DNA from: Octopus sinensis
Taxonomy: Eukaryota
Length of the DNA: 64,000 bases
NCBI RefSeq assembly: GCF_006345805.1
Contig: NC_043015.1
Span: 49,414,001-49,478,000, forward strand
Direction: 5' to 3'
The position numbers and the translations under genes were made by a program. Positions 23,856-58,557 of the stretch are shown here, in pieces. The notes beneath the pieces are model-generated. The model saw nothing but the letters and a program-made list of their open reading frames with translations. It made no database searches and had not been told where the DNA came from. Position 1 is the first letter of the stretch. Each line of letters starts with the position of its first letter.

Positions 23856-24102
23856 ATACTACTGTGACTACACATAAAACAATATCATTGATGATGATGG
23901 TGGTGATGGTGATGGTGATGATGATAATGATGATGGTAATGGTGGTGATAATGATGATAGTGATGGTAATGGTGATGATAATAACAATAATAAGCCGACT
24001 ACGGCTGCTATAATGGTACGATTATAATTGTAACGGCAATGATGGCCGTCTCCCCAAGAGCAAATCAAAGCTAAAAAATGATAACATTATCGTAGCACCA
24101 AA

Positions 24103-25818
24103 ATGTTTTTGGAAACTAAAAGGAAAACTAAATCAGTATACCAAATCGCTTGTCCTATGGTTAATTTGGAAGCGCGTCCCCCAGGGAAGAGCCAGCCTGG
24201 GATCGAAAAGTCATCAACTGGCCCAAACTCTTCTCCGAATACGGACATGGATGGTCACTTGAACGGGAAATCCCCCAACTCGAGCCCTCCAAGTTCACCA
24301 CCACAACCACCACAGAAAGAAAAATGTAAGCGGAACAAATGGACCCGAGAAGAGTATAAAGAAGTAATATACGCTTATTACTATGCATTAGGTAGGCCTT
24401 CTCAAGAGAGACACACCGCAAACTCTTACAGTATATGGAGAACACGGAATCAAGACAGTAGGCCCTATTTGGACGAGAACAAATTAGCAAATGTGAGGAG
24501 GGATATCTTTAGAAATAACAGACTCACAGACAGTGAAATAAGCGCGATCAAGCACGCAACGGAAAATGACATAAATATAAGACACAAAGGAAATGAAGAA
24601 TCAGATGAACAGTATAGCCCGCCACGAGGCTTAATTGAAAGACTGCCATCTGACCAAAGTACGCAAAGGCCTGAAGATACAAGAAATTCTATTGTACCTG
24701 TTAAAGATAGCCAGGAAAACGAAAAAACAACAGTAACTGAAGATCTCGCATTTGCTGAAGAACACAGAGAGTCTATGGCAGAAATGAGGCAGAAAATCCT
24801 GAATAAGCTTGAAGTTGTAAGACATACAAGTATGAATGATAGAGAACCGCTTCATAAACTCTCAAATACAAACCAAAATAAAAAACAAATCCAAATTGGC
24901 AACTATGTAATAAATGAAATAATACGAGAATTAAAACCTGATTTTACTGAGTTAAATGAAATTATTTACGCTTCTGCTAGGGCAATTGAAACTAGCTGTA
25001 TGCCCCCGAAAAAACAAAGAAAACAAAACCTGGGAAGAAATCAAGCCTGGAGAAGTAAAATTGAAAAAGAGATTGAATTTATGAGAGGGGAAATATCAAT
25101 ATTAAATGAACTAATATGTGGAAATGATGTAAGATCCAGAACAGGAAGAAAGATGAAGAGAAAATTTGGATCCTCACCAAGAGAAGAACTGATATCAATA
25201 AAAGAAACGCTGAAACAAAAAGTCCAAGCAAAAGCCCAAAGAATACGAAGATTTGAGAAGAGAAACAAGTTTTACAAGCAAAATAAGCTGTTCACATCCA
25301 ATGCCAAAAAATTCTACAGAGAAATAGGGAAGGAGAAAGTAACCGTTAAAGACCCCCCTCCCATGGAAGAAGTTCAAAACTTTTGGAAAAGGATTTGGAG
25401 TGACAAGAAGACGTACAACATAAATGCAGACTGGATTATACAAACTGAAGGATCCTACCAAAATTTACAACAACAAGCATGGGAAGACATCACAATAGCA
25501 GACCTAAGAAAGGCACTCACGAAGGCCCATAATTGGAAATCCCCCGGTAAAGATAGGGTGCCGAATTTCTGGCTCGCATCGCTCCCGTGCGCACACGGTA
25601 AGCTAGTTCAGCTGCTCAATGGAATTATGAGAGACCCAAAGAAAACACCTGAATGGTTAGCAAGTGGCATTACTTACCTACTCCCAAAGAATAACGAAAC
25701 CAACCTTCCAAAAAACTATCGGCCTATAACCTGTCTATCCACCACGTATAAAATCCTAACATCTATCCTGGCGGAGAAAACATGCATTCATGGAGAAGAA
25801 CGATATTTTCCCCATTGA
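24103..25818 (+). CDS. Dong-1 polyprotein N-terminal part (Myb-like domain, RT start), ended by a frameshift near 25782
   Basis: KWTREEYKEVIYAYY..W..KLANVRRDI; NWKSPGKDRVPNFWL; NYRPITCLSTTYKILT. Confidence 0.85.
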   Translation: MFLETKRKTKSVYQIACPMVNLEARPPGKSQPGIEKSSTGPNSSPNTDMDGHLNGKSPNSSPPSSPPQPPQKEKCKRNKWTREEYKEVIYAYYYALGRPSQERHTANSYSIWRTRNQDSRPYLDENKLANVRRDIFRNNRLTDSEISAIKHATENDINIRHKGNEESDEQYSPPRGLIERLPSDQSTQRPEDTRNSIVPVKDSQENEKTTVTEDLAFAEEHRESMAEMRQKILNKLEVVRHTSMNDREPLHKLSNTNQNKKQIQIGNYVINEIIRELKPDFTELNEIIYASARAIETSCMPPKKQRKQNLGRNQAWRSKIEKEIEFMRGEISILNELICGNDVRSRTGRKMKRKFGSSPREELISIKETLKQKVQAKAQRIRRFEKRNKFYKQNKLFTSNAKKFYREIGKEKVTVKDPPPMEEVQNFWKRIWSDKKTYNINADWIIQTEGSYQNLQQQAWEDITIADLRKALTKAHNWKSPGKDRVPNFWLASLPCAHGKLVQLLNGIMRDPKKTPEWLASGITYLLPKNNETNLPKNYRPITCLSTTYKILTSILAEKTCIHGEERYFPH

Positions 25819-27790
25819 ACAAAAAGGGTGCCGCCGAGGCTCTTACGGATGCAAAGATCAACTGCTAATCAATCGTATGATCCTTGAGAACTGTCACAAC
25901 AAGCGCAGAAATCTCAGCACCGCATGGATTGACTATAAAAAGGCCTTCGACAGTATACCGCATTCATGGATCTTGAGATCGCTGGACATCTTCAAAATTT
26001 CCCCTGTGATTTCAAACTTCCTGAAGCACAATATGTCGTTGTGGAATACGAATCTCCAATTATACCACTCTAATGGAGTACTTGCCTCAGAAAATATAAA
26101 CATCAACTGTGGAATTTTTCAAGGTGACTCACTTTCACCTTTAATATTCTGCATAGCCCTAATACCCCTTACAAGGGAATTAAACAGAACAGGGTATGGG
26201 TATAAAATTGCCAATAAAAAAATAAGCCATCTATTTTGTATGGATGACTTAAAACTTTATGGTAAAGACAATAATGAACTTGAAGGCCTATTGCGCACCG
26301 TGAAAGCATTCAGCGATGACATCGGGATGGAGTTTGGACTTGAGAAGTGTGCCAAGGCCACTTTCCAGAAAGGGAAAGTGAAGACCACAAATTCAGTCGT
26401 GTTAGATGTTGACACAGTCATAAGAGAGCTTGAGCAAGAACAAACATACAAATATTTAGGGATAAATGAAGGCTCTGGTATTCAGCATGCAAGCATGAAA
26501 GAGAAAATCAGGAAGGAATGTTATAGGAGAGTTCGTGCAGTCCTGAAATCTGAACTAAATGCACGTAACAAGGTGTTAGCTATAAATTCCTTAGCAGTTC
26601 CAGTTGTTACTTATAGCTACAATGTGTTGAACTGGAATATGAGTGAAGTAAAGAATATAGATAGAAAAATACGCAAGCTGCTGAGTTGTAATAGGATGCA
26701 CCACCCAAAGGCAGACGTAGATCGCCTTTACCTTCCCAGAGCCCAAGGAGGTCGAGGCCTGATCCAATTTGAACTAGCTTACAAAACAACCACAATTGGA
26801 CTGGCCAAATATCTCGAAATATCGAATGATTGGATGCTAAAGCTCGTGGAAAATCACGAGAGACGAAAGAAGCTTCATTCTATCATCAAGGAAAGCAAAA
26901 AATTTGCTATTGATCTCGTGCAGGATACCCAAACTGAACAACCCGAGGGAAGTACGGCAACTATTGTTGCAAAGAAGGTGAAAATGATGGCAATGAAAAA
27001 AGCGCACGAGCAATTGGCTGATAGGTGGGAGGAGAAACCTCTGCACGGCAAATATGTGACCCGCAGCAAACAAGCTGATGTTGACCAGAAGCAAACCCAT
27101 CAGTGGCTGCGGAGCTCAGGGCTAAAAGCAGAGAGCGAAGGTTTCATCCTGGCTGCCCAAGACCAAAGCCTATTAACCCGGAACTACCAGGCCAATGTGA
27201 TGAAAAATGGAGCAGACCCAAAATGCCGATTCTGCAACGACATGATTGAAACAGTGGACCACCTAATCTCTGGATGTAAAGTCTTAGCACCAGTGGAGTA
27301 TAAATTAAGACATGACAGAGTTGGCCAATATCTCCACTGGCTAATAAGTCGGCATTACAATATCAAAACTGCCGACAAGTGGTATAATCACCACCCTGAG
27401 GCTGTAACTGAAGGAGAAAATGTAACCATTCTGTGGGACTTTCCAGTACATACAGACCGAACCATCAAGGCCAATAAACCAGATATTGTTGTGAAAGACC
27501 AAAACAATAAAGTTTGCTTATTGATCGACATGAGCATCCCCTGTGATCATAATATCTCAGCGAAAGAGTTTGACAAGCTCAGAAAATATAAGGACCTACT
27601 CATTGAAATTGAGAAAATGTGGCATCTCAAGGCGGTTACAATACCAGTGATCGTAGGAGCACTAGGAATGATCAAGAAGGGAACCGAAAATTATATGAGA
27701 ATGATCCCTGGCTTACCATCTCTGCAAGAAGTGCAAAAGATTGTCTTAACTGGTACATCACACGTATTGAGAAGAGCATTGTCGATGTGA
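25790..27790 (+). CDS. Dong-1 polyprotein C-terminal part (RT, CCHC knuckle, restriction-like endonuclease)
   Basis: EQKGC, WIDYKKAFDS, GIFQGDSLSP, FCMDDLK, YKYLG, CRFC..ETVDHLISGC, RHD, KPDIVV..IDMSIP..K..KY. Confidence 0.92.
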   Translation: MEKNDIFPIEQKGCRRGSYGCKDQLLINRMILENCHNKRRNLSTAWIDYKKAFDSIPHSWILRSLDIFKISPVISNFLKHNMSLWNTNLQLYHSNGVLASENININCGIFQGDSLSPLIFCIALIPLTRELNRTGYGYKIANKKISHLFCMDDLKLYGKDNNELEGLLRTVKAFSDDIGMEFGLEKCAKATFQKGKVKTTNSVVLDVDTVIRELEQEQTYKYLGINEGSGIQHASMKEKIRKECYRRVRAVLKSELNARNKVLAINSLAVPVVTYSYNVLNWNMSEVKNIDRKIRKLLSCNRMHHPKADVDRLYLPRAQGGRGLIQFELAYKTTTIGLAKYLEISNDWMLKLVENHERRKKLHSIIKESKKFAIDLVQDTQTEQPEGSTATIVAKKVKMMAMKKAHEQLADRWEEKPLHGKYVTRSKQADVDQKQTHQWLRSSGLKAESEGFILAAQDQSLLTRNYQANVMKNGADPKCRFCNDMIETVDHLISGCKVLAPVEYKLRHDRVGQYLHWLISRHYNIKTADKWYNHHPEAVTEGENVTILWDFPVHTDRTIKANKPDIVVKDQNNKVCLLIDMSIPCDHNISAKEFDKLRKYKDLLIEIEKMWHLKAVTIPVIVGALGMIKKGTENYMRMIPGLPSLQEVQKIVLTGTSHVLRRALSM

Positions 27791-29460: not shown

Positions 29461-29479
29461 GCTAAATGAATTGACTGCG

Positions 29480-31465
29480 ATTTGGACCGAGTTTGTAAAT
29501 TTGAAGATACAGCTCAAACCAAAGAAGAACCGAAAGGGAAAAATAATTATAACGTTACCAATAAGGAAGGGACAACTGGCATCAGCGACTTAAGTCATTT
29601 AAGTGAGGAAGATAAAAAGATTTTAGATGAGTTGCAGCAAGTAATGAGTAAAGAAGTAAGAAAAAGATTGCCAGTATTTAAAGGCACCAACAGAAGGAAG
29701 CTGTTAGAAATGACTATGAAAGTAGATTCTGTTATCAGTAGGATAGATGCTAAAAATATAGGAGACACTGACTTATTGATCAATGCAGGAGGGGTAGTAG
29801 TTATTAGAAGATTAGATATTCCACAAGGAAAGATTAGACAAGAGCAAATGTGGAAAAGGAAATGACAAAATAAAAGTGAAGACTTTAAGGCAAGATCTGA
29901 GTATAACAGAAACCTGGAAACTGAACAAGTTAGGAAACACAAGATGCAAATCTTCTCCTGAGAAAAAATATTTAGTCATAGAAAAAGGATTTGGGACAGT
30001 AATAGAAAAGTTGATACAGCGTATCATAACAGCAACAGGTAAGCTCTCAAGATATCAAAAAAGAATAGATGAGTATCAACAGAATAAATTATTTGAAGCA
30101 GGCCAGGGGAGATTTTATAACCAAATAAATAGTGGAGAAAGAAGTACTGAACATGAGAACCCAAATGCAGAAGAAGCTAGAAAGTTCTGGAGTAATATCT
30201 GGGATAAGCCAGTCAATCATAATGGACATGCAATATGGTTAAAGAAAGTGAGGGAAAAAATAGTGAGTGAGAAGCAGCCACATCTAAGACTAACTAGTGC
30301 ATTAATGAGTAAAGTGTTAGGAAAAATGCCGAATTGGAAGGGCCCAGGACCAGATTTAGTTCAAGGGTACTGGCTAAAGAAATTTAGTAGTTTATATGGG
30401 AGGGAACAACTCCAGGATTGCCTTAATGGAGGAATAATACCAGATTGGATGACTAGAGGGAGGACAATACTCATTATGAAAGATAAAAGCAAGGGTAATA
30501 CACTTAGCAACTATAGACCATTAGTGTGGAAGCTGTTAAGAGGAATGATTTCAGAAAGCATTTACGAGCACCTTGACAACCAGAATTTACTTCTAGAAGA
30601 ACAGAAAGGTTGCAGGAAGAAGGCGAGAGGAACGCATGATCTATTAGACATAGACAAAGCAGTTCTAAATGAAGTAAAAGCTAGAAAGAAAAATCTCACA
30701 ATAACATGGATAGATTATAGGAAAGCCTTTGACATGATCCCACACTCGTGGATAAGTGAATGTTTGAGTATATTCAGTATTGCAGACAACATAAGAGAAT
30801 TAATTAGCTTTAGCATGAATAAATGAAAAATAGATCTCTACTCAGGTGACAGTTTTAGGGAAAGTTTATATCAAGAGAGGAATGTTCCAAGAGGACTCGT
30901 TATCCCCTTTAATATTTGTCTTATGCTTGATCCCTTCAGTTTAGTATTAAGGAAATTTAAGGCAGGGTATCAGTTCAGAAATAGTAAGGGGAAAATTAAC
31001 CATTTGCTGTACGTGGATTTCTGGAACTTTTTAGTAAGAATGAGAAAGAGACAGTTCTTTAATACAGACCGTAAAACTCTTCAGCAAAGACACCGGCATG
31101 GAATTTGGCAGAGATAAGTGTGCAATATTAGGCATGTGAAGTGGACAGGTAGTCAACAGTGAAGGCATCCAATTACCAGATGGCTAGACATTAAAATTAT
31201 TGAAAGGAGGAAAGAGTTATAAGTATCTAGGAGTATTAGAATCTAACAGAGTACTAATTATAGAAATGCAAACGAAAATTGAGGAGTATATCAAAAGGCA
31301 AAGGAAGCTAGATGGTCCGAATCTAGTGTAAATACTTGGGCAGTATCATTATTTAGATACTCAGCAGCTTTTGTAGATTGGACAAAAACTGAATTAGCAA
31401 AGCTAGACAGAAGAACTAGGGAGGAATTCAATATGGATGAAGGACTCCACCAAACGGCAAGAGTA
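29480..31465 (+). mobile_element. Decayed R4/Dong element, N-terminal region and RT; 3' part missing
   Basis: KMPNWKGPGPDLVQGYWLKK, EEQKGCRK, WIDYRKAFDMIPHSWI, QEDSLSP, NHLLYVD, YKYLG; several frameshifts and stops. Confidence 0.88.
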
Positions 31466-52230: not shown

Positions 52231-52328
52231 TGTATGTATGTATGTATAATATATAAGAATTTAAAGAAAGAAAATGCACACACTTTACGTAGTTCTCATA
52301 TAATTTTTAATATATCTTGTATTGTGTT

Positions 52329-52361
52329 TGTCGACCGGTTTCGCTTTCGCTATTCATGACA
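52329..52361 (-). ncRNA. Minimal hammerhead with A3-U8 variant core
   Basis: TGTC-ATGAATA-GC-GAAA-GC-GAAA-CCGG-TC-GACA; all stems pair. Confidence 0.72.
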
Positions 52362-53143
52362 TTAACATTTATTTAAATACGTATTTTCTTAAGAAGAATT
52401 TTTTGTCCGTGTTGTGTGAGGAGTTTACAAATGAACGATTCAACAATTAGAAAAACCTAAGGAGAGGTAATTGTTTATAGTTATTATTGTGGACAGGGAA
52501 TATAATTGTTCAGTTCAAAAACTAGAGTGGTAGGGAGAAATATGTACAGTAATGGGTATGTAATCGTGAATTAAAATATGTAAAGGGATCAAAGTTGGTT
52601 ATGCGTGCATATTTAGATATGTGCTGTATTTTTCGATGAAAAAATTTTCTTTATTTAAACGTTCTTCTAAAGAAATTGTATCTTTGCACTGGTAGAAGGG
52701 GAAAACTGTGAAATTTGGTTTGATGTTACCTGCACATTTCTCTGTTTTCACTTAAAGGAATTTGTCTGTATTCCAATGTATCTTTTCATTTCGTACAAAG
52801 AAAAGTGGCAAAATGAAGGAAATATCTTCATTTATATAGAAGATCAAAAATAAAATCACAGATGCAAAAGAAAAAAAGAAAAGAAACGAACACACAATAC
52901 TGCCAGAAAAGTATTTAAAACAACCATCAGCAGATATGGATATATAAACGCACCCGCGCAAGTTGTATAGCGCGTGCACACTCACTCTTACAAGCATCCG
53001 CGAAAATGTAAGCATACACATACGTGGGGTTTGGTGCACTCACGATCACAAAGTGAAGTAAATAGCTACTTAGTATTTATAAGAAGGGGGTGGTTAGAGT
53101 TAAACTTAATTCATCCATACCTTAAAGTGAAATATGTAAACAG

Positions 53144-53960
53144 TTACACAAATTCATTTTCACTGCATTGTACGAAAGTACGTTTATATGCGTGTAGGCA
53201 TCTTGAGAGTCTTTCAGAAATGCTATCAATGATTTTCTCATCGGTGCACAGAATAGACAGAGATTCCGCGGAGTAGAGTCGACATCTCCTGGAAATGATA
53301 TTGTATGGTTTTGGGTGCCTTACTATGGACCAAGTTATGTTGTACTTAATTTTATCTTCCTTCAGAAGCCAAACAAAATCAGCCAAAGATGTTGGATGTC
53401 TCTTATTGGTTTTCTTGAAGCTGGGGACAGTGTTGCGATAACAATTCTTAAGTGAATCAGCCGTATGCCCAATGTAAACATACGACCCTCCATTGTGTGC
53501 ACGGTACATTTATATACAAGATTTGTACTCATACAGAGGTTCATCAATGGACATCTTGATTTTTCTCTGCACAAGCATTTATCATATATATTTGTATATA
53601 TGGCAGTTCTGGTTTCATTTTCCAACATTGTTACCGTGTTAGCTACATCATAAGCATTTCTACTATTACAATTTGGCCGTAATTGACGCATTGTTGGTAT
53701 TTAGATGCGTATGTTCGCTAGATCCAGTATGTGGATTATTGAACTGTTGTCGCATTTGACTATTGTTTACGCGGTACATAAGCTAATCTAAATTAGCAGA
53801 GTTAGCGTAGGATACCTTCATGGCGTGCCTATTAAAAATTGCATGATATCAATTAGATTTAGAAAAGCATTTGTCCAAAGCAGCAAAAAATTTCTCAGCG
53901 ATTTTGGTTGAAACATCCGAACCGAAAATTGGGTTGAACCAGAGGACATCCTGATGGCTT
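53144..53960 (-). pseudogene. Penelope GIY-YIG endonuclease / linker remnant (frameshifted)
   Basis: ORFs 53144-53509 and 53362-53691 join as LVYKCTV..YVYIG. Confidence 0.82.
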
Positions 53961-54263
53961 ATTTGATCGGCTGTGTTGTGCAGGATTGGAACAATTTACA
54001 GTGTTACGAGCAGTTGGATTATTATGTCACGTGTGTCCATGAATTTTCGTTGGTAGTTCATTGTCTTGACCAATTCTTCTTAACCTGTATTTACTATCTG
54101 AGTGAGTTCTCATATCATGACTTTGTGATGGTATACAATGTGTATTACTATTGGAGGAATTACCAGTGTTGTGTATACCTGCTTCTTGTATATATATGAA
54201 TACATATATATGTGGTGTGTATGTATATATATTTATTTATGTGTGTGTATGTATGTATGTACA

Positions 54264-56695: not shown

Positions 56696-57857
56696 CAGTA
56701 GTTTTATTTTTATAGCGTGCTTTCACTTCACTACCGAGCGCAGCTCTGTGTGCCTTGGGTATGTGCTGTGATTTGTTGTGATGCTCTGATGGTTATTGTA
56801 TGGAAAGTGTTCTGCGTAGGATGTGTGCAGTGCCTAGTAGTGCAATTTTCTGTATGTTATATGTGTTTGTAAGTCCTGGTGTTTTTGTTATGTATTTGTC
56901 TGAATATTTTTTTATCATGCCTAATGCACCTACTATGATAGGAATTGTTTCTGTTTTCAGGTTCCACATTCTAGTTACCTCTATTTCCAGGTCTTTGTAT
57001 TTTGAGAGTTTCTCCATTTCTTTTAGAGACACGTTGTCATCTGCCGGTATTGATACATCAATTAGAAAGCATTTTTTTTCTTCATGATCTCTGACAACTA
57101 TATCTGGTCTGTTGGCTTTAATTTCTCTATCTCTGTGTATCGGCATATCCCAGAGTATGGTTGCTTTCTCGTTTTCTGTGACCTTTTCTGGTGTGTGCCT
57201 ATACCATCTTTTTCTGTTGTTATTCCATAATGTTGGCATAGCTTCCAATGTATGTAGGTTCCAACTCTGTCATGTCTGTGAATATATTCCTTCTTAGCCA
57301 GGACTGGGCAGCTAGAGATAATATGATTTATTGTTTCTTGTCCATCTCCACATATTCTGCAGTTACTTGTAATATTTCTTTTCATTACATGTTTTTGGTA
57401 ATTTCTGGTGGGGAGGTTTTGGTCTTGTGCTGCAATTAAAAATCCCTCTGTTTCTGCTTTGAGTCCTGAGCTTCTCAACCATTGCTGGGATTTTTCTTTG
57501 TCTATTTCTTTTGCGTTTAGTTTAGTGCAGTATTTACCATGAAGGGGCTTTTCTTGCCATCGTTTTATCATGGCTCGTTGCTGTTCTATTTTTAGTTTGG
57601 ATTTCATTTGTTTTATAGCTTTTGTTGTTTCTTCATCATCTTCTTCTTCTTCTTTGTGTTTATTAGGTGGTATGATTTCTTGTTTGTATTTGTCAGCTTC
57701 CTTAAATACTGAGAACAGTTTTTTGTTTTGCTCGTGTTTTGCTGCTATCTGGATCAGTTTTCCTTCCTTCTGAAGTAGGTATTTTTGCAGTCCTATGGTG
57801 GTTATTTTATAGTAGTTTTCCAGCTGTATAAGGCCTCTACCACCTTCTATACGTTGT
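56696..57857 (-). mobile_element. Dong-2 5'-truncated copy, young, in (TAA)n
   Basis: EGGRGLIQLE, WLRSSGLKAETEGFLIAAQDQ, CRICGDGQETINHIISSC, NRPDIVV..IDVSIP; one frameshift near 57210; (TTA)n both sides. Confidence 0.92.
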
Positions 57858-57884
57858 ATTATTATTATTATTATTATTATTATT

Positions 57885-58055
57885 AAGCGTAGGAATGGCT
57901 GTGTGGTAAGTCGCTTGCTTACGAACCTCATAGTTCCAGGTTTCAGTCCCACTGCGTGGCACCTTGGGCAAGTGTCTTCTACTATAGCCTCGGGCCGACC
58001 AAAGACTTGTGAGTGGATTTGGTAGACGGAAACTGAAAGAAGCCCGTCGTATATA
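57885..58055 (+). mobile_element. SINE-A 5' half
   Basis: Head and CORE-like segment. Confidence 0.88.
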
Positions 58056-58063
58056 TGTATTTG

Positions 58064-58120
<57 letters not shown>

Positions 58121-58557
58121 ATTATTATTAGCTATATATTTTGTTTTCAGTGTTTGACTTCATTTCTTACTCTTTACTCCAAAGAAGAAGAAAAATACGT
58201 ACCAGCCGTGTACTGGTCCAGTAAATTGATCGCACCTAGTTTCCTCTAAACAATTGGCCATGTGTATAGAATTTAAAGGAAATCAATATTATTTTAGTAA
58301 CACCGACACCACCGCTCGCTGGGAAATCAATATTAATATATCCAGGAATAAATAACCGAGAGAACATATATTGCATGGCTGTGTTTCCATTGGTGAATAT
58401 TATACAGTGACTGTTTAAGCGATACATTTAAACTGTGGTCATTCCCTCTGTGTACGCGGACAATATAATGTATTGTACAGCTTCGATCGTATTGATTGGA
58501 AATGTCTACTGCTAAGGAAATCGATAAAAAAAAAATACTCGATGTTAAATTCGTTAT

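Follow-up and report, generated by a model that had tools for sequence, protein, structure and literature searches.

A 33-nt motif on the minus strand of a 64,000-nt stretch of Octopus sinensis DNA, the whole of which is called the window here, belongs to a repeat family in which an A3-U8 pair takes the place of the canonical C3-G8 pair of the hammerhead ribozyme core (Table 1). We judge it rather probable that this is a hammerhead of the pLTR of a Neptune-type Penelope-like element (PLE), that its A-U pair arose from U-A and is likely selected, and that the predicted activity is a weak, dimeric self-cleavage at a GUC site, probably assisted by a protein.

The minus-strand letters agree exactly with the 33 nt, stems, core, GAAA loop, palindrome and GUC site given in the first-pass annotation. 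Stem I of the window copy is UGUC/GACA, and stem II consists of only 2 bp (GC/GC) closed by a GAAA loop and followed by G12-A13-A14. The letters that define a minimal type I hammerhead (U4, G5, A6, N7 and A9, then G12, A13, A14, the A15.1-U16.1 pair and H17) are all present, and at every one of these columns the canonical letter stands in at least 46 of the 55 family copies described below. The canonical C3-G8 identity (CUGANGA) is absent and A3-U8 is found in its place. When a relaxed four-pair descriptor was run over the window, five candidates were returned, and only this one combines a 4-bp stem I with a palindromic stem III. Rfam 15 gave no hammerhead match at the site at E<=10, and its only matches in the window were to simple-repeat microRNAs, below the cut-off.

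Table 1. Features of the window, in the numbering of the whole stretch.
Feature	Position	Strand	Remarks
Minimal type I hammerhead motif, A3-U8 core	52361-52329	minus	33 nt
Core A3 U4 G5 A6 N7 U8 A9 (AUGAAUA)	52351..52357	minus	A3 = 52357, U8 = 52352
Palindromic stem III, ACCGGU	52334..52339	minus	6 bp in predicted dimer
Predicted cut	between 52333 (C17) and 52332	minus	
Neptune-type Penelope-like element, 5'-truncated	52255..52772, 3' end approximate	minus	ends in (TA)n
C-terminal stub of Neptune GIY-YIG endonuclease	52599..52772	minus	stop codon, one frameshift
Hydra-clade Penelope remnant	52774..54200, 5' end approximate	minus	RT thumb, CxCX5C linker, GIY-YIG
GIY-YIG frame of the Hydra remnant	53144-53509	minus	ends 783 bp upstream of the hammerhead
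Non-LTR retrotransposon, near-intact	24085-27790	plus	RT and C-terminal restriction-like endonuclease in two long frames, from translation
Remnants of that non-LTR retrotransposon	29470-30826 and 56793-58159		

The motif is a feature of a repeat family and chance is excluded as its origin, since its counts lie far above those of controls. The animal's own genome (2.72 Gb) contains 202 occurrences of an 18-mer that spans stem II to C17 and none of its reversed control. A genome-wide count of the A3-U8 core had been proposed in the first-pass annotation; with 5-14 free bases and then GAAACCGGTC required after the core, it gave 1006 matches versus 15 for the control. The 18-mer excludes the core and hence can be used to recruit copies irrespective of their core letters. 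Among the first 30 copies that it found, 24 read AUGAUUA or AUGAAUA, the remaining six carried one or two scattered changes, and none read CUGANGA. Throughout the genome there is likewise no CUGANGA associated with this stem-loop II, that is, no C3-G8 version of this stem II form.

A second sample was recruited independently of the motif from 30 loci matched by the endonuclease protein and 30 matched by the window copy's upstream UTR; the window copy and the locus that supplied the protein query are both among the 60. The motif could be located in 55 of them (27 in the endonuclease set and 28 in the UTR set), with A3 in 54 and U8 in all 55. The earlier suggestions that A3-U8 is neither decay nor private to this copy, and that searches with a CUGANGA pattern would overlook it, are both borne out: A3-U8 is the state of the family, private decay of a CUGANGA family is ruled out by the 18-mer copies, by the zero CUGANGA matches and by the flank-recruited copies, and Rfam misses the motif just as the canonical pattern does. 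Among the matches listed for contigs assembled from four runs with four organism labels, the seven core positions were free of variants, and variants were present in stem I and in loop II; related organisms therefore share the A3-U8 state. A metagenome scan for the family motif gave no matches.

The only core column in which the 55 copies share a second letter is N7 (A in 40, U in 14 and C in one), the position that is free in hammerheads. Among the 12 catalytic columns none has a second letter at a frequency of at least 10%, whereas 59 of the 195 upstream UTR columns do (Fisher P 0.021), and when N7 and stem III are counted as well, one of 17 columns varies to that extent (P 0.046). This contrast lends modest support to selection, and it is weak because about three subfamilies contribute to it and the columns are not independent. 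The subfamilies are ~25-30% apart in their UTR and have the core in common.

The first-pass annotation had linked the motif to Penelope elements, and this link holds: the hammerhead lies in the 3' UTR/pLTR of a Neptune-type Penelope element, of which the window contains a lone insertion made up of an endonuclease stub and the 3' UTR/pLTR. The stub ends ~240 bp upstream of the hammerhead and is 89% identical over 46 aa to a longer copy of the family (locus L132, E 7e-27), and the protein of the upstream Hydra-type remnant gave no match to it. Longer copies of the family encode an RT with a DKG motif, a CX4CxxC linker (CGRPNCGTC, of the CX2-5CxxC zinc-finger type) and, C-terminally, the GIY-YIG endonuclease, to which the Pfam models RVT_1 and GIY-YIG gave weak matches below the cut-off. 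By these motifs alone, the parent element fits the Neptune clade.

It had also been noted that a Penelope GIY-YIG remnant lies about 800 bp upstream of the motif, and this remnant is real and on the same strand, but it represents another family and was rejected as the parent of the hammerhead. Its translation contains the WFNP thumb motif, the linker CLCREKSRC (CxCX5C) and CLH (CxH), and lacks CCHH. A CxCX5C linker, the absence of CCHH and a CxH near the end of the endonuclease are marks of the Hydra clade (PMC8557442), to which the remnant is assigned from its translated letters; the RWK and DKT motifs fall outside it. Pfam did not recognize this endonuclease. The 29 best homologues of the remnant match it as far as ~52774 or end sooner, and none continues into the hammerhead module. 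Instead, they run on, just past the position that corresponds to 52774, to a motif of their own of the C3-G8 type, in which stem II has a long insert; the window lacks this motif, the remnant there being cut off ahead of it. In the Hydra family at large (L062-L090) this hammerhead has a 9-bp stem II and an insert of ~50 nt, often with a CpG-decayed C at position 4. The first position of the module that carries the A3-U8 hammerhead is 52772, and a different GIY-YIG gene lies ahead of this module in other copies. The same-strand junction at 52773, which joins a Hydra 5' part without its tail to a Neptune 3' part, was not seen in other loci and may represent a template-switch chimera or an insertion accompanied by a deletion.

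The position of the hammerhead within the complete element is evident from other copies. In those of full length the motif occurs ~140 nt before ORF1 and ~270 nt after ORF2, as in L277, where the copies at the two ends are ~3.9 kb apart and the 3' copy is slightly decayed, and in partial tandems it is found ~140 nt ahead of the ORF1 AUG. Direct tandem arrays of the A3-U8 motif that resemble the units of non-LTR retrozymes were observed at two loci, with three copies at ~545 nt that are 99% alike and two copies 427 nt apart (L095, at G000:C2:15873154-15874267, and L096). No intact A3-U8 copy was seen, the longest open frame among 150 scored matches being 635 aa, and pairwise identity between copies is at most 96%; hence the family may be extinct, whereas a related family with a U3-A8 core, termed Y, is intact.

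The origin of the A-U pair was approached through sister families found by protein. Cores other than A3 that precede the same palindrome gave 2787 matches versus 94 for the control, and among 100 of these that were listed there were none with CUGANGA, 53 with U3-A8 (counted by hand) and one C3-U8 copy of the A3-U8 family. Four sister families (B, C, D and Y) have U3-A8. Two outgroups have C3-G8: O1 reads CCGAAGA in five of five loci, while O2 reads CUGAUGA in four of 24 loci and is decayed or undetected in the others. O1 (L205-L210) is young, with open frames of 777 aa, and its core is a U4C variant found with the palindrome AGUACU. Family Y (L162, at G000:C15:612000-618500, together with L161, L163 and L164) is also young and intact, and it has a separate ORF1 of ~500 aa that overlaps a 782-aa RT-EN frame, an arrangement that is unusual among EN+ Penelope elements. 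The U3-A8 hammerhead of Y is GAAAACCGGUUG in three of four copies, a sequence that, read as a hammerhead, implies a core with one A more or a site with G17, as does that of family C.

A maximum-likelihood protein tree was built from 23 chosen single tblastn segments, labelled by family and rooted on O1 and O2. It has the form (B, ((Y, D, C), A)), in which A is the A3-U8 family; its group is supported at 85/84 and the inner group at 97/99, so that U3-A8 is paraphyletic to A3-U8 and two changes of the 3-8 pair suffice on the tree. A quick tree of 64 rows from the endonuclease region nested B in the same way and left family A unresolved; the U3-A8 label that one locus (L105) bears in it stems from a neighbouring insertion and was disregarded. 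Between families, every change of the 3-8 pair yields another pair (A-U, U-A and C-G), and its path was likely C-G to U-A to A-U, as read from the tree. The step from U-A to A-U requires two transversions that pass through a mismatch. The first-pass annotation had derived the core straight from the canonical one by the changes C3A and G8U, a route that is disfavoured by the nesting of A3-U8 inside U3-A8, which makes a flip of the U-A pair likelier.

Other repeats came to light in the same searches. An abundant and homogeneous repeat with CUGAUUA 11 nt before GAAACCGGUC (L101, L103, L104, L108 and others) makes up ~40 of the 100 matches listed, but has no convincing stem I and matched PLE protein at none of four loci checked, and it was excluded from all counts. 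Further families of minimal hammerheads with U3-A8 or U3-G8 and a longer stem II, often in inverted pairs, were seen at L112, L113, L120 and L114.

Pairing was counted in 53 ungapped copies, the two of the 55 with deletions being left out. Positions 3 and 8 are complementary in all 53 (A-U in 52 and G-U in one). In stem I, between 47 and 53 of the 53 copies are paired at each position and two pairs are changed on both sides in a compensatory manner: pair 2.3:1.3 is G-C in 19 copies and A-U in 26, and pair 2.5:1.5 is A-U in 17, G-C in nine and unpaired in 27. The two pairs of stem II are intact in 49 and 51 copies, with only one-sided, CpG-type changes to G-U. The covariation that had been suggested as a check on the stems is thus seen in stem I and fails to appear in stem II. 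The monomer folds no better than its shuffled versions (z 0.44), and its stem III is too short to close. When two copies are cofolded, the minimum-energy structure of the homodimer (-14.9 kcal/mol) is a double hammerhead whose stem III has 6 bp, in keeping with the earlier proposal that the motif acts as a dimer through its palindromic stem III.

How such a motif would work can be outlined from these features. In a read-through transcript, the copies of the motif in the two pLTRs would pair through ACCGGU and would swap or keep their stem I, and A3-U8 would form where C3-G8 otherwise would. The chemistry would still be carried out by the 2'-OH of residue 8 together with G12, and a cut 3' of C17 would free a unit-length RNA. 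The copy in the window is itself likely an inert relic, because it is a lone, 5'-truncated insertion with no partner in cis.

Przybilski and Hammann, in 2007, are said to have found all four 3-8 pairs to be cleavage-competent in some contexts. Residue 8 acts via its 2'-OH and G12 as the base (PMC6155905), and so any 3-8 pair could serve in principle; Perreault et al. (2011, PMC3088659) cite Przybilski and Hammann 2007 for the activity of covarying pairs. When one type III hammerhead was scanned over all pairwise mutations, the 3-8 pair was rescued by the G3-C8 swap alone, and activity was low in every other double mutant of that region (PMC9901934). The minimal hammerheads of PLEs are reported to act as dimers and to be slow or of low activity even so (PMC4209133). 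The PLE hammerhead of Anolis cleaves only with the protein of the element and depends on the 3-8 pair; insertion in vitro did not require its cleavage, and no ends of RNA-seq reads were found at the site (PMC11167929). Naiad PLEs thrive without canonical hammerheads. The short stem II of the octopus motif and the folding score of its monomer count against activity. Taken as a prediction, a weak and dimeric cleavage that is probably protein-assisted is what we lean toward.

Three other accounts of the conserved motif have to be weighed. It could be kept as a non-catalytic structure, such as a site of RNA dimerization or of binding by the element's protein, in which A3-U8 saves the fold and cleavage is negligible. 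The low activity of swaps other than G/C in the mutational scan (PMC9901934) and the dispensability of cleavage for in vitro insertion in another PLE (PMC11167929) would agree with this, as would the fact that the palindrome and stem I are conserved as strongly as the catalytic bases. It does not account for the retention of all of G12, A13, A14, U4, G5, A6 and the H17 site, nor for the complementarity of the 3-8 pair across three states, when that pair is present only in the catalytically active fold (PMC3884650), and we regard it as unlikely. A dead hammerhead might instead have hitch-hiked in a successful master lineage, its two changes being neutral ones in an AT-rich UTR and its conservation a result of recent descent. 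The copies were amplified from few masters, which makes the counts non-independent, the family is apparently without intact copies, and the statistical contrast is modest (P 0.02-0.05). Set against these points, the core is common to subfamilies that differ by ~25-30% in the UTR, and two transversions that land exactly on a Watson-Crick pair, two compensated pairs in stem I and variation limited to N7 and loop II are all hard to reach neutrally, which leaves this account distinctly improbable.

The last of the three would have A3 selected as the start codon (A3-U4-G5) of an upstream or spliced frame in the 5' pLTR, with U8 coming after. Read from position 3, 21 of the 27 copies recruited by the endonuclease have 18 open codons before a stop, which shares letters with a donor-like word, GTAAGT, and an ORF begins inside the hammerhead in another PLE (PMC11167929). 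In the subfamily of the window, however, the frame stops after 8-23 codons, mostly ahead of the donor-like word, the AUG with which ORF1 itself begins lies ~140 nt downstream of the cut site, and no acceptor AG can be made out immediately ahead of it. A selected start codon is accordingly a very remote prospect, and a selected A-U hammerhead in a Neptune-type pLTR is the reading carried forward here.

The motif and its element can be compared with several known systems. The minimal hammerheads of metazoan PLEs (Cervera and De la Pena 2014, PMC4209133) are also of type I with a short stem I, G10.1-C11.1 and a palindromic stem III, and they too are found in both pLTRs, mostly as solitary truncated copies that number hundreds to thousands per genome. 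In contrast to them, the octopus motif has the A3-U8 core, a stem II of 2 bp rather than 4-8, and no additional nucleotide between A9 and G10.1. U3-A8 occurs naturally in the PLE families of Schistosoma mansoni (PMC4209133) and also in phage and bacterial hammerheads (PMC3088659), while A3-U8 is found in none of the 56 aligned metazoan representatives in the supplement of the former study and is absent from the table of Hydra and Chlamys elements in Craig et al. (2021, PMC8557442). The core variants of Perreault et al. (PMC3088659) resemble the present case in their natural 3-8 covariation and their tolerance of a 2-bp stem II, and differ in that the main text gives U3-A8 only and in being mainly prokaryotic and tertiary-stabilized. 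The small PLE hammerheads of Lunse, Weinberg and Breaker (2017) are also dimeric, with a reduced palindromic stem III and cleavage as dimers (PMC6765202). Neptune EN+ PLEs (PMC8557442) share with the octopus family the C-terminal GIY-YIG, DKG, the CX4CxxC linker, Cys/His residues of the CCHH type, (TA)n ends and partial tandem and inverted arrangements, and differ from it in lacking its separate upstream ORF1 (as in family Y) and its non-canonical hammerhead core. No natural A3-U8 and no such cephalopod core was found in the literature compared, a body of work that leaves out Lunse 2017 and the Perreault 2011 supplements, where examples may occur.

The family thus offers covariation on a tertiary catalytic pair within one genome, with three states connected by two changes. 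That the lineage took its 3-8 pair from C-G to A-U by way of U-A and stayed functional throughout, that this would be the first family-wide purine-3/pyrimidine-8 hammerhead in a eukaryote, and that thousands of such motifs would be invisible to CUGANGA searches and Rfam is, taken together, a tentative proposal that we find plausible and, on balance, slightly doubtful. The covariation allows a natural test for continuing selection on hammerhead catalysis in Penelope elements, and it supplies minimal ribozymes with C-G, U-A and A-U pairs as a matched natural set for kinetic work. Screens with the canonical pattern, which finds 0 of the ~1000 A-U copies, undercount the hammerheads of PLEs, and this bears on reports of PLE clades without them.
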